Source: an uncultured Gammaproteobacteria bacterium
GTDB lineage: Bacteria > Pseudomonadota > Gammaproteobacteria > JAURND01
Length of the DNA stretch: 64,000 nt
Direction of reading: 5' to 3'
NCBI GenBank assembly: GCA_963797335.1
Contig: CAWCOU010000001.1
Location: 10,963 to 74,962, forward strand
In this document: positions 58,546 to 60,975 of the stretch, piece after piece
Layout: the number at the start of each line of letters is the position of its first letter
Numbering within the stretch: position 1 is the stretch's first letter
Notes under the pieces: generated by a model
What the model saw: the letters and a program-made list of their open reading frames with translations, nothing else
Database searches by the model: none
Told to the model about the DNA's origin: nothing
Position numbers and translations under genes: made by a program

Positions 58546-58556
58546 ATAAACGCTCC

Positions 58557-59138
58557 CTACAAGACAACCCGATAACGCTCCAACACCCGCGAATAAGTGG
58601 TTTTCAACTCCTGCCATTCCAACAAAAACCACGGAGTGAATTGTTGCGGTTGATTTTCCAACTCCAATTCTAAAGCCCTACCACTAATAAAACGCCAGCT
58701 GGCAATCTCATTCTCATTAGCAAGCACCGGACCATTACAACGCCCCACAAACACAGAACACAACTCATGCTCAGCGCCCAAATTCAGATAAGGAACCTGA
58801 TACTTAAATTTATACAAATACTCCAATGCAGTATCCAACCCCAGCTCCTGGCTCAACCGACGCCGACAGGCCTGCGCCATATCTTCCCCACGCCGAGGAT
58901 GACTGCAACAACTATTAGACCAATACAACGGCCATAAACGTTTTTGACGACTGCGTTGTTGTAATAACAACTCACCGTCATCATTAAAAATAAACAAAGA
59001 AAAGGCACGATGCAAAAGCCCATCCTTATCATGACACGTGAGCTTATCTTGATAACCTATCTCATGATCCTCCTCATCCACCAATATAAGCGAATCAGAA
59101 TCAAAAGAAACGACAGAATGCTGTACTTGTGATCGCAA
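58557..59138 (-). CDS. idi: Type 1 isopentenyl-diphosphate isomerase
   Basis: LHRAFSLFIFN, WSNSCCSHP, EHELCSV, FTPWF. Confidence 0.95.
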   Translation of the reverse strand: MRSQVQHSVVSFDSDSLILVDEEDHEIGYQDKLTCHDKDGLLHRAFSLFIFNDDGELLLQQRSRQKRLWPLYWSNSCCSHPRRGEDMAQACRRRLSQELGLDTALEYLYKFKYQVPYLNLGAEHELCSVFVGRCNGPVLANENEIASWRFISGRALELELENQPQQFTPWFLLEWQELKTTYSRVLERYRVVL

Positions 59139-59232
59139 GTGATATTTCCCTCACATATATCTGAAATAATCTTCACATAGTAGCTGGAACTTAAATCAGT
59201 TTCACCTATTTCCGCCCCGGCATCCATGCTGG

Positions 59233-59531
59233 GCTAGGGTATGCACACATCTTTTTTTGTCAACTGTGAGTAGGCACCGGATTAACGATTAGCACTGTAA
59301 ACCCCCTCTCCCGCGCGAGGAGTTTGGGCAAAAGCTGCAAACCTATTCGCGGGAGAGGGTAGGGGAGAGGGTAAAGTCTCGCGTTATCCATTCGCCCTCT
59401 CCCCAACCCTCTCCCGCGAACAAGTTCAAAGCCTTTATTCAAGCCCTCGCGCGGGAGAGGGGGCTTACAGTGCTAACCCCTAATCTAATACTCCCTCACA
59501 GTTGACAAAAAAAATGTGTGCATACCCTAGC
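59233..59531. mobile_element. Complete 299-bp MITE (family B) with 37/38-bp TIRs and an 8-bp target duplication
   Basis: TIR GCTAGGGTATGCACACAT(C)TTTTTTTGTCAACTGTGAG; CATGCTGG at 59225-59232 and 59532-59539; inner 32-bp inverted repeat. Confidence 0.9.
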
Positions 59532-59561
59532 CATGCTGGAACGATGGTTCTATGATTTACT

Positions 59562-59752
59562 GCCCAAGTAAGCATGAAGTATCCCAGGGGCTGGCTGCAA
59601 ACCTTCTAATTCAGGGAGGAATTAGGGAGCGACGGATGTATTTATGCGTGTTTGCGGCCAGCCCCTGGGATACTTCATGCGTGAAGTGGCTCCGGTATCG
59701 AAGGCTAAAGGCAGAAACACTGCTATGATACTTCATGCGCGAAGTGGCTCCT
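59562..59752. repeat. Family A copy 2 plus an extra tail copy
   Basis: Matches 1402-1537; GATACTTCATGCGCGAAGTGGCTCCT repeated at 59727-59752. Confidence 0.9.
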
Positions 59753-59896
59753 AACTCAAGAACGCGCATCATTCAGTGTCCAGGTAACCTCCCAAAACCC
59801 TTCAATTTCGCAGAAATTCCTGATATTCTGCATCGTTTTCTTGAAAAATTACCCACAGAGGCAGCAAAAGCCCTGCGGAAGGAGTGGAACAAATGA
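59735..59896 (+). CDS. 53-aa leader ORF starting inside the repeat tail, ATGA-coupled to hmgR
   Basis: Open frame MREVAPNSRTRIIQCPGNLPKPFNF...LRKEWNK*; its stop overlaps the hmgR ATG. Confidence 0.35.
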   Translation: MREVAPNSRTRIIQCPGNLPKPFNFAEIPDILHRFLEKLPTEAAKALRKEWNK

Positions 59897-60975
59897 TACA
59901 AACCGATTCAATCGCGGCAATCCCCATGAAAACCATCGGCCCCATCCGCATCATCGGGCCAGAACTCCAAGAAGAAGTGATGGTCCCGCTTGCCACCTTT
60001 GAATCACCCCTCTGGCCCTCCACCAACCGCGGCGCCCGAGTATCCTGCCAAGTAGCAGGAATCCACGTCGTCATCATCAAAGACTGCATGACACGCTCCG
60101 TACTCGTAGAAGCCCCCGACGCCCAAGCCGCACATCGCATCGCTAACCACATCCAACAACAACGCCACCTACTCGCCGAAGTCGTCGCACGCACCAGCCG
60201 TTTCGCCACCCTCGAAGACTGCTTCAGCCAAATAGTCGGCAACTTACTATACCTACGCTTCTCCCTGCAAACCGGCGATGCCGCTGGCCACAACATGGTC
60301 ACCCAGGCCGCCGATGCCCTACTGACCTGGCTATTCGAACACTACCCCGAACTCCAATACGTCTCCATATCCGGCAACCTATGCATCGATAAAAAAGTCT
60401 CAGCCATTAACGGCTTACTAGGCCGTGGCAAATACGCGGTAGCTGAAATACTCATCCCCCGCGCCATTTGCGAAAGCCGCCTAAAGACAACGCCCGAAAA
60501 AATCGTCGACCTCAACATCAAAAAAAACCTGCTAGGGACATTACTAGCCGGTGGCATTCGAACAGCGAATGCCCATTTCGCCAATATGTTACTGGGTTTC
60601 TATTTAGCCACCGGCCAAGATGCCGCTAATATAATCGAAGGCTCGCAAGGAATTGTGCACGCCGAAGTCCGCAACGATGGGCTCTACTTCTCCGTCACCT
60701 TGCCTAATATTATCGTCGGCGCCATCGGCAACGGCAAACATTTAGACTTCGTCCAGAACAACCTAAAAATGATGGGTTGCCTGGAAAATCGAGCTAAGGG
60801 CGATAATGGCCGCCGCTTGGCAGCCATCGCTGCTGCTACCGTTTTATGCGGAGAGCTGTCATTACTGTCAGCCCAAACCAATCAGGGCGAATTGATGCGA
60901 AGCCATATCCAATTGGAACGAAGAGGGGAACCGCTATCGGCCAGAAAGCTTGCTTGTGACCCTGTAACACCATGA
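59893..60975 (+). CDS. hmgA: HMG-CoA reductase (class I-like)
   Basis: TGDAAGHNMVT, SGNLCIDKK, NAHFAN, VLCGELSLL, HIQLER. Confidence 0.93.
   Translation: MIQTDSIAAIPMKTIGPIRIIGPELQEEVMVPLATFESPLWPSTNRGARVSCQVAGIHVVIIKDCMTRSVLVEAPDAQAAHRIANHIQQQRHLLAEVVARTSRFATLEDCFSQIVGNLLYLRFSLQTGDAAGHNMVTQAADALLTWLFEHYPELQYVSISGNLCIDKKVSAINGLLGRGKYAVAEILIPRAICESRLKTTPEKIVDLNIKKNLLGTLLAGGIRTANAHFANMLLGFYLATGQDAANIIEGSQGIVHAEVRNDGLYFSVTLPNIIVGAIGNGKHLDFVQNNLKMMGCLENRAKGDNGRRLAAIAAATVLCGELSLLSAQTNQGELMRSHIQLERRGEPLSARKLACDPVTP

Follow-up and report, generated by a model that had tools for sequence, protein, structure and literature searches.

Three strand-asymmetric patches of synonymous composition in a 64-kb window of an uncultured gammaproteobacterial chromosome

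Skewed patches and the genes that they span

The stretch of DNA analyzed here (the window; 64,000 nucleotides of contig CAWCOU010000001.1 from an uncultured Gammaproteobacteria bacterium) is housekeeping chromosome, with a cox operon, genes for ribonucleotide reductase, serS, bipA and fatty-acid oxidation, and a mevalonate-pathway operon. Its base counts (A 17454, T 17140, G 14861, C 14545; G+C 46%) show no overall strand skew. Within it lie three patches of ~1.5-2 kb, each extending over two neighboring genes whose proteins are intact, in which third codon positions are as much as 0.95-1.0 A or C on one strand, compared with a window mean of 0.51. An earlier note, made from the letters of the window alone, had drawn attention to the one of these patches that covers the divergent genes idi and hmgR, and had ascribed it to a process centered on a cluster of repeats there.

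Throughout, third-position A+C (A+C3) is read on the + strand unless the coding sense is stated. In windows of 60 codons the standard deviation across the window is 0.11, and the background outside the patches is 0.504 for + genes and 0.514 for - genes. The null set comprised 2.1 Mb from 169 other loci (80 hmgR loci, 80 pepB loci, and close relatives). The relatives compared directly were L082, L166 and L167 (for idi/hmgR), L164 (for coxC to pepB) and the more distant L084, all far enough away that synonymous sites approach saturation, which weakens tests of rate and spectrum. The closest database relatives are metagenome-assembled genomes (MAGs), several of them labeled Coxiellaceae. The material from this genome came to ~77 kb in total and represents one organism and one sequencing run (ERR11523675), which was the only run matched in exact-protein look-ups for this organism; a further sequence, P0002, proved to be the window sequence again, with errors close to its end. 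No patch was found in 12.5 kb of additional flanking sequence.

Patch 1 (43950-45730) is A/C-rich on the + strand and takes in parts of two convergent genes: coxC (+; gene 43916-44797; Pfam COX3), of which it covers the 3' part, and a gene for a DUF7847 membrane protein (-; 45125-46012), of which it covers the 3' two-thirds. In its left lobe (43950..44797) the coxC codons end in C or A, with a gradual rise from ~43950 through an A+C3 of 0.62-0.67 at 43960-44250 to 0.92 at 44539-44608; the lobe has an A+C3 of 0.77, compared with 0.40 in the orthologous segment of L164. In the right lobe (45125..45730) the DUF7847 codons end in G or T and the + strand is again A/C-rich, with A+C3 at 0.88-1.0 over 45150-45470, 50 consecutive A/C third positions at 45311-45458, and a return to baseline by ~45730. 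Read in the coding sense, the A+C3 of this lobe is 0.17, vs 0.40 in L164. The spacer (44798..45124; A.28, C.22, G.30, T.20) is unskewed and is occupied by window-specific repeats, namely two 98-nt direct repeats, 100% identical (44818-44915 and 45015-45112), placed around a hairpin element (~44931-45009). The spacer folds strongly (z = -6.6), and as it has no homology to the native 107-bp coxC-DUF7847 spacer of L164, we regard the repeat unit as an element rather than a target duplication. The hairpin element is related to a hairpin at 884-968.

Patch 2 (47980-49800), the largest, has the opposite polarity, being G/T-rich on the + strand with A+C3 down to 0.04-0.15, and consists of the 5' parts of a divergent gene pair. 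Its left lobe (47980..48495) is the 5' two-thirds of a 273-aa hypothetical gene (-; 47674-48495) with no Pfam match, where A+C3 is 0.08-0.21 at 47995-48350. Its right lobe (48712..49800) is the 5' three-quarters of a pepB-like M17 leucyl aminopeptidase gene (+; 48712-50094; Pfam Peptidase_M17), with G/T-ending codons and a gradual fade: A+C3 is 0.25 at 48750-49040, 0.04-0.17 at 49110-49290, 0.25-0.30 to ~49750, and then 0.4. The pepB lobe as a whole is at 0.26, compared with 0.52 in L164. The spacer with the divergent promoters (48496..48711) is weakly skewed (G+T 0.56), has no significant structure (z = +1.17), and is mostly conserved with L164 save for a 55-bp window-specific insertion bearing the REP-like (repetitive extragenic palindromic) motif GGGGGCGGAGCCACCCTACGC, which occurs once in the window. 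The dip in skew at the center of the patch can be explained by constraint, since the spacer is otherwise strongly conserved with that of L164.

Patch 3 (58557-60560, with a weak tail to ~61300) is A/C-rich on the + strand and covers the divergent idi (-) and hmgR (+) genes. Its left limit is a REP doublet downstream of idi (58470..58545), formed by two GGTGGGCA...TGCCCACC hairpins (inverted repeat I21); A+C3 is 0.23-0.37 to the left of the doublet (58250-58424) and at least 0.8 to the right of it. The left lobe (58557..59138) is the whole of the idi-like gene (Pfam NUDIX), with G/T-ending codons and A+C3 of 0.67-0.93. The 754-bp spacer (59139..59892; A.27, C.26, G.23, T.24) is unskewed and filled by two palindromic MITEs (miniature inverted-repeat transposable elements), one of 302 nt at 59231-59532 with copies at 25528-25704 and 36169-36405, and a second at 59560-59746 with a copy at 1400-1536. 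The right lobe (59893..60560) is the 5' two-thirds of hmgR (59893-60975), with C/A-ending codons; A- or C-ending codons make up 199 of the 234 degenerate ones in this part of the gene and 73 of 114 in the remainder, and A+C3 steps down at ~60531 to a weak plateau of ~0.63-0.70 that runs to ~61300. On the other side of the doublet, the last ~60 codons of a gene for a 382-aa hypothetical protein (58250-58430) show a mild G/T excess on the + strand (A+C3 0.23-0.37); the sign is the reverse of that in the idi lobe, and the excess may be either noise or a short lobe with inverted polarity.

Counts made by hand for the earlier note were reproduced. In hmgR exactly 86 of the 95 third-position-degenerate codons within 59893-60192 are A- or C-ending, and our recount of the coxA control segment, given before as 34 of 68, was 35 of 69, about half as stated; over the whole of coxA the figure is 255 of 501. 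A+C3 peaks at 0.95 in hmgR and at 0.90 in idi, bearing out the statement that idi, although on the - strand, is likewise A/C-rich on the + strand. In the null set, none of the 2.06 million 120-codon phase windows from the other loci had a value of at least 0.82 or at most 0.18, compared with 296 of 63,643 in the window. Extremes of GC skew inside the window were -0.39 and +0.34, and those of AT skew +0.44 and -0.35, while the G+C content of the patches (0.42-0.57) lies around the overall 0.46.

In each of the three patches both oppositely oriented genes have one DNA-strand polarity. The coding strand has a G/T excess in idi, pepB and the DUF7847 gene; in hmgR, coxC and the 273-aa gene the excess on that strand is of A/C. 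Of 48 gene junctions, only the three of the patches are strongly skewed on both flanks. The skew is a property of the DNA strand common to oppositely oriented neighbors, and not a codon-usage trait of single genes.

The shift relative to orthologues is 0.23-0.37 at third codon positions, 0.04-0.07 at first positions and ~0 at second positions, and the first-position shift comes mostly from the synonymous first positions of Leu and Arg. Third-position frequencies on the A/C-rich strand are A.29-.44, C.37-.53, G.06-.12 and T.09-.13. At 2-fold sites the odds change by a comparable factor (~4-8 fold) for the two transition classes, superimposed on the codon preferences usual for this genome; in lobes with an A/C-rich coding strand C:T moves from ~0.7 to ~3 and A:G from ~2 to ~15, and the G/T-rich coding lobes mirror this. 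Averaged over the six lobes, the favored fraction starts at 0.71 within 90 bp of the gene end, climbs to its maximum of 0.87 at 270-360 bp, has dropped to ~0.6 by 630-720 bp, and reaches baseline at 1.1-1.4 kb, so that the fade over 0.7-1.4 kb described earlier was about right. One edge of each patch is sharper, as located by change-point fits at 45485 (0.95 to 0.66), 48013 (0.46 to 0.15) and 60531 (0.88 to 0.63; support 60513-60567). The far side is gradual, except that patch 3 instead ends at the REP doublet.

Weaker, one-sided signals were seen at the 3' ends of a ferritin-like gene (~25160-25520) and a fadB-like gene (~55640-56033). A short G/T3-rich stretch (12297-12534) lies in a gene (8377-14229) whose 1950-aa product has Sel1 and TPR repeats; such proteins are common in intracellular Legionellales-type bacteria. 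A signal at 14100-14600 was rejected as a patch, being low-complexity A-rich sequence. Among the other loci, the relative L091 (an uncultured Coxiellaceae MAG, pepB locus) has a stretch at 8150-9770, beginning ~150 bp inside pepB and running ~400 bp beyond its stop, where a single codon phase has a G/T excess (A+C 0.17-0.33), with the upstream gene unskewed; it is milder than patch 2 and has the same sign, in the same gene of a distant relative. L025 also attains 0.78, at 12200-13020.

Descent of the patches and their relation to repeats

Comparison with relatives indicated that the patches arose in place. Gene order is kept in L164, L166 and L084, with L164 having the order cox operon, coxC / DUF7847, CNNM, 94 aa, 267 aa / pepB, acad, and identities to the window of 81% for pepB and 93.5% for coxC. 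The patches are absent from all of the syntenic relatives (L082, L164, L166, L167 and L084); that orthologues might share the bias, a possibility raised in the earlier note, was thus not borne out in L082, L166, L167 or L164. Based on these same-gene-order relatives having no patch, the patches are derived in this lineage. The hmgR protein is 90% identical between L082 and the window, and its identity is 0.88-0.94 inside the patch and 0.83 outside it. More generally, the proteins are intact, as had been stated, and as similar to those of relatives inside the patches as outside. Horizontal import, inversion and chimeric assembly are excluded by the conserved gene order, by an identity of the proteins that does not drop inside the patches, and by the fading edges.

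The proposal that the process is centered on the cluster of REP, MITE and other repeats in patch 3 was not supported, at any rate not in a simple form. The repeats themselves are unskewed, with A+C of 0.53 in the patch 3 spacer and 0.50 in the patch 1 spacer, and copies of the same families elsewhere (1400-1536, 36169-36405 and 884-968) have no strong halo (flank A+C3 0.47-0.63). The largest patch contains neither a MITE nor a significant hairpin (z = +1.2), and L082 has nested palindromic repeats in its idi-hmgR spacer yet no halo, while L166 and L167 have a 229-bp spacer free of repeats. The L082 repeats, at 3713-3961, and hairpins at the 3' end of idi in that locus (2844-3026), are unrelated in sequence to the MITEs of the window; several genes of L082 are split by frameshifts, and its assembly is of low quality. 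We rejected the repeat families as a cause because repeat-bearing spacers elsewhere, among the 48 junctions measured, are not strongly skewed on both flanks, and a model in which hairpins act as blocks was likewise rejected, as the patch 2 spacer has no structure.

Nonetheless, every patch spacer has an insertion that is specific to the window and missing from relatives: the 98-nt pair with its hairpin in patch 1, the 55-bp GGGGGCGGAGCCACCCTACGC insert in patch 2, and the MITEs with the REP doublet in patch 3. An association of the patches with spacer insertions remains. The repeats are 91-100% identical to their other copies and so are young; too few differences exist within the aligned MITE copies for any bias to be read from them, and an exact search of the genome contigs for the window MITE gave 0 matches.

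Several other features were noted. A family of G+C-rich hairpins followed by CCCTACG(C) occurs at 48550-48574, 56033-56140 and 58470-58500, at or beside skewed regions, and two tandem GATCAACC copies at 56001-56023 adjoin the weak skew at the end of fadB. A gene for a PD-(D/E)XK transposase (25704-26558, -; PDDEXK_2, Rpn/YhgA-like; E = 1.7e-41) abuts the MITE copy at 25528-25704 and adjoins the weak one-sided A/C skew of the ferritin-like gene. A tandem array of 96-bp units (36748-37118; three overlapping 179-nt copies, 97-100% identical) lies between or over the ends of an open reading frame (ORF; 36448-36789) and serS (37082-38479). Two inverted paralogues for YkuD_2 L,D-transpeptidases (33155-33967, +; 35214-35972, -), 70% complementary over 110 nt, flank a phosphorylase-superfamily gene. 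Rfam and tRNA scans found nothing.

Substitution spectrum and candidate mechanisms

The direction of change was determined by three-taxon parsimony with L082 and L166 as the pair and mvk as the control gene. In the patch genes the synonymous changes specific to the window run toward A/C, with toward:away ratios of 42:6 in hmgR and 23:1 in idi; the mvk ratio is 34:28, from which those of the patch genes differ at p = 3e-4 and 2e-4. The changes involved are G>A, T>C and G>C; in idi, 22 of the 23 synonymous changes toward A/C are transitions. Within the hmgR patch, third positions that are A or C in L082 are retained at 72-84% and those that are G or T at 20-27%, compared with 43-69% for all bases in mvk. 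Nonsynonymous changes at positions 1 and 2 are also shifted, with 54:27 toward:away in the window and 29:35 in the relative (OR 2.4, p = 0.012). As positions 1 and 2 move in the same direction, the force acts on the DNA or RNA sequence and not on codon choice for translation.

No deaminase sequence context was detected: conversion of C was 59-81% for every 5' neighbor, with no TC or WRC preference. The changes are compatible with deamination of exposed single-stranded DNA as a candidate process. They do not fit hypermutation of the AID/APOBEC type (kataegis), as conversion on the G/T-rich strand affects A as well as C and there is no dinucleotide context. A diversity-generating retroelement was also rejected, because no direct repeat pair covers the patches and the changes are synonymous and include G and T; no reverse transcriptase gene was found among the ~43 window ORFs scanned for domains, of about 50. 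GC-biased gene conversion does not apply, G+C being little changed and the shift being an amino/keto strand asymmetry. Replication direction is excluded because an A/C-rich patch (to 45730) and a G/T-rich patch (from 47980) lie 2.2 kb apart, so that polarity flips within that distance, with gene order conserved (L164, L084) and the background unskewed. Pausing of forks with lagging-strand exposure fits one patch of the three. Resection from double-strand breaks predicts opposite polarity on the two flanks, which was not seen in the three patches; only the weak G/T stretch to the left of the REP doublet agrees with it.

The bias acts strand-wise, is specific to this lineage, affects all codon positions according to their freedom to change, and is not tied to the repeats now present. 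We consider the patches best read as the product of a bias toward transitions that is anchored locally, differs between the strands and is filtered by purifying selection. On one strand G would be replaced by A, or by C where the codon permits, and T by C, which is equivalent to a build-up of C>T and A>G on the strand that turns G/T-rich, and purifying selection would strip nearly all products that change an amino acid. That the bias is mutational rather than one of fixation, that it comes from exposure and the chemistry of deamination, and that transcription or an R-loop is the agent are three points that we infer. A mutational origin is favored by the predominance of transitions in idi and by the likeness to the light strand of mitochondrial DNA.

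As to the mechanism, we lean, tentatively and with somewhat less than even confidence, to single-strandedness of the G/T-rich strand along a one-directional tract of ~1.5-2 kb, with a transcript or R-loop as the agent. Such a tract would begin within one gene, pass through the spacer and fade in the neighboring gene, and the G/T-rich strand would be recurrently single-stranded along it. The most plausible source of the exposure would be a long transcript or R-loop by which this strand, as the non-template, is displaced, and the G-richness of the RNA (GC skew ~0.3) could in turn stabilize the hybrid. A one-directional tract is the best fit because models symmetric about the spacer give the shared polarity but not the asymmetry of the edges. 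If transcription entered each patch from its sharp edge, its non-template strand would in all three cases be the G/T-rich one, an agreement for which the chance expectation is 1/8. Transcription bias had been dismissed in the earlier note on the grounds that the two genes face opposite ways, and for the annotated genes we agree, since one gene per patch has an A/C-rich coding strand; with three such genes, transcription asymmetry could hold only for unannotated transcripts that cross the spacers.

Several observations weigh against this account of a transcribed, exposed tract. Promoter and terminator scans gave results at the level of shuffled sequence, and in patch 1 the tract would need to start inside the DUF7847 gene. 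The distinction of sharp from gradual edges rests on modest steps of 0.25-0.31, and the pattern is carried by one genome from one sample. We know of no transcription-associated skew of such a size in bacteria. A large added mutational input would be expected to raise the number of amino-acid substitutions inside the patches, but window:relative counts were 48:54 inside and 84:70 outside, with no acceleration. Total synonymous divergence is also equal inside (0.47) and outside (0.46), as a fixation bias would predict as well. Lastly, G>C changes in hmgR (8) are about as frequent as G>A (9), and at 4-fold sites G>C (16) exceeds G>A (4), these sites being near saturation; such a frequency can be reconciled with deamination only through multiple hits and codon preference.

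In broader terms, a site-anchored and strand-specific process, be it a persistent R-loop, a programmed nick or gap, or a deaminase coupled to a helicase or polymerase, may drive ~1.5-2 kb to near-saturated G/T; we regard this as possible but rather doubtful.

A more specific alternative, which we think unlikely, is that one particular strand is nicked repeatedly in or close to the spacer, for example at a REP-like site by an HUH/RAYT-type enzyme or another site-specific nickase, and that the nick is then processed on one strand. The gap could be widened both ways to as much as ~1 kb, exposing the intact strand, or the errors could stem from misdirected mismatch repair or G.T-type resynthesis. 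Nicking of this kind would account for the same polarity on either side of each spacer, for the window-specific insertion in every patch spacer, and for the predominance of transitions in idi; the half-width of 0.6-1.1 kb would suit known excision-tract lengths, and REP-like hairpins followed by CCCTACG stand at 48563, 56051 and 58494. The orientation of these elements does not agree, however, as the three intergenic copies of the REP-like CCACCCTACG/CCCTACG tail are all on the + strand and patch polarity varies; the motif count is also at chance level. The lack of skew in the repeats, and of halos around their other copies and around the repeats of L082, counts against a nick as well. Neither a nickase nor any other HUH/RAYT or deaminase gene, the search for which had been suggested in the earlier note, was found among the window ORFs scanned (~43 of ~50). 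Local failure of mismatch repair should speed protein evolution, which was not observed, and the skew has its maximum ~300 bp inside the genes and not at the spacer, although constraint on the spacer could explain this.

The equal divergence and unraised rate of amino-acid substitution given above are what would be expected if the bias arose through strand-specific biased gene conversion, in which the same strand always enters heteroduplex with DNA of other cells at recombination hot spots, G.T mismatches are rejected more efficiently than A.C ones so that A and C alleles of the entering strand are passed on in preference, and no extra mutations are made. Nonsynonymous changes toward the favored class are ~1.8-fold up and those away ~0.8-fold, as a weak fixation bias would produce, and the kb-scale, distance-dependent shape resembles the halos of conversion tracts. 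We nevertheless hold gene conversion to be improbable: the mismatch-specific bias that it needs is hypothetical, the data come from a single population sample, and there is no sign of recombination and no uptake or Chi-like signal. The sole 8-mer shared near two of the edges, the Chi-like GATCAACA at 45718-45725 (+) and 47972-47979 (-), has the mirror orientation of outward-facing hot spots, but its count is at chance level, other copies (21918 and 43213) have no halo, none is found at patch 3, and 45718 falls outside the change-point support.

More improbable again is selection on composition itself, under which a transcript or strand spanning the patch would be favored as A/C-only or G/U-only. 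Possible reasons would be avoidance of secondary structure, altered sensitivity to Rho or RNase, or avoidance of spurious promoter or Shine-Dalgarno-like signals. Protein evolution would then not be accelerated, both polarities would be expected if asymmetry alone matters, and the 4-fold sites of hmgR would use G>C transversions as freely as transitions, as was seen. In idi, on the other hand, the changes are nearly all transitions, the syntenic relatives do without such composition, and no known function needs 1.5-2 kb of it across two unrelated genes; furthermore, the conserved spacers, which are the seat of regulatory selection, are least skewed.

Translational codon selection on each gene segment, with C/A-ending codons read by Watson-Crick pairing and U/G-ending codons by wobble, is very unlikely. 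The A/C vs G/U split is the cognate vs wobble split for a small tRNA set, and the effect is greatest at third positions; but the six lobes come as three pairs of neighbors, each with complementary codon endings on the two sides of a common spacer, the skew begins and ends within genes, and synonymous first positions and nonsynonymous sites shift as well.

An artefact or foreign origin (chimera, systematic base-calling error, acquired blocks or inverted segments) is effectively refuted, even though the organism was seen in a single run and the window contig has at least one indel error, because sequencing or polishing errors cannot follow codon position with positions 1 and 2 and the proteins conserved as elsewhere, and because a second assembler gave the identical sequence, in addition to the matching gene order, undiminished protein identity and fading edges described above. 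The second assembly consists of Logan contigs of run ERR11523675, possibly from the same reads, which are 100% identical over 45083-59288 (14,206 bp) and 99.95% over 59573-64000 (4,429 bp). The contig for the latter interval, L081, differs from the window by one indel and one mismatch; in it mvk is intact (344 aa), and in the window the gene is split by a frameshift (61373-61400; ORFs 60972-61400 and 61373-62005), which is probably an assembly indel rather than a sign of a pseudogene.

Significance and comparison with known systems

Strand asymmetry is the main fossil record of DNA replication, transcription and repair, and its known form in bacteria is weak and extends over the whole chromosome. 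If the bias in the patches is mutational, there would be fixed chromosomal sites at which one strand is chronically exposed or misrepaired, and these would act as natural mutation hot zones that could shape codon usage, the properties of mRNA and, slowly, protein composition. If it is one of fixation or selection, it would point to an unrecognized strand-specific conversion or to a constraint on long transcripts. Were a dedicated process responsible, the patches would be a natural counterpart of engineered targeted-hypermutation windows, a form of local mutagenesis or conversion undescribed for bacterial chromosomes. In practical terms, a search for transcripts, R-loops, nicks or recombination can be directed to the patches, whose coordinates, polarity and edges are given exactly. 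They also yield long spurious ORFs in all six frames and mislead codon-usage detectors and those for horizontal gene transfer.

The closest compositional parallel is vertebrate mitochondrial DNA, in which C>T and A>G changes accumulate on the heavy strand left single-stranded during strand-displacement replication. There too an A/C-rich strand is paired with a G/T-rich one, synonymous sites are affected most, and genes on opposite strands have complementary codon endings; the third-position frequencies of the patches resemble those of the light strand. Unlike mitochondrial DNA, the patches are segments of 1.5-2 kb in a bacterial chromosome of zero overall skew, with both polarities within 2.2 kb, no replication origin known at them, and an amino-acid composition that has barely changed. 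The GC and AT skew associated with bacterial replication, including the strand-dependent codon usage of Borrelia, has the same keto/amino axis and strand-dependent codon endings, and is usually explained by deamination of the more exposed strand. It is, however, chromosome-wide and much weaker, and changes sign only at the origin and terminus.

In length and shape the patches are more like transcription-associated asymmetry. In mammals the C>T excess of the non-template strand is limited to the initial 1-2 kb of transcripts, and there is also a transcript-wide excess of A>G (PMC2927911). Asymmetry of this kind and the domain of immunoglobulin somatic hypermutation share with the patches a length of 1-2 kb, a sharper start, a gradual decay, an excess of C>T plus A>G on one strand, and a possible link to R-loops and a G-rich non-template strand. 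The patches differ in that one gene of each is wrongly oriented, so that unannotated antisense or read-through transcripts are needed, in that synonymous sites are near saturation rather than changed by a few per cent, and in that they occur in a bacterium, with no deaminase gene among the window ORFs scanned.

Hairpins or MITEs lie in or beside all three patch spacers and are lineage-specific, as in REP/REPIN-RAYT and MITE systems; such elements are not known to alter the base composition of flanking DNA. The patches also resemble the halos of GC-biased gene conversion in being kb-scale, distance-dependent and fixation-like without raised overall divergence. Unlike the patches, which are strand-specific, that process raises G+C on both strands symmetrically.

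Full-text searches of the literature for local keto/amino skew and for natural targeted hypermutation in bacteria did not return a description of the pattern, which is limited evidence of absence. What we have not found described is the combination: a skew of a bacterial chromosome that is local, near-saturating, of either polarity, continuous across opposed genes, and not shared by syntenic relatives. The amino/keto axis and the candidate chemistry have counterparts in mitochondrial DNA and replication skew, and the length and shape of the patches have theirs in the asymmetry linked to transcription starts and in hypermutation domains.

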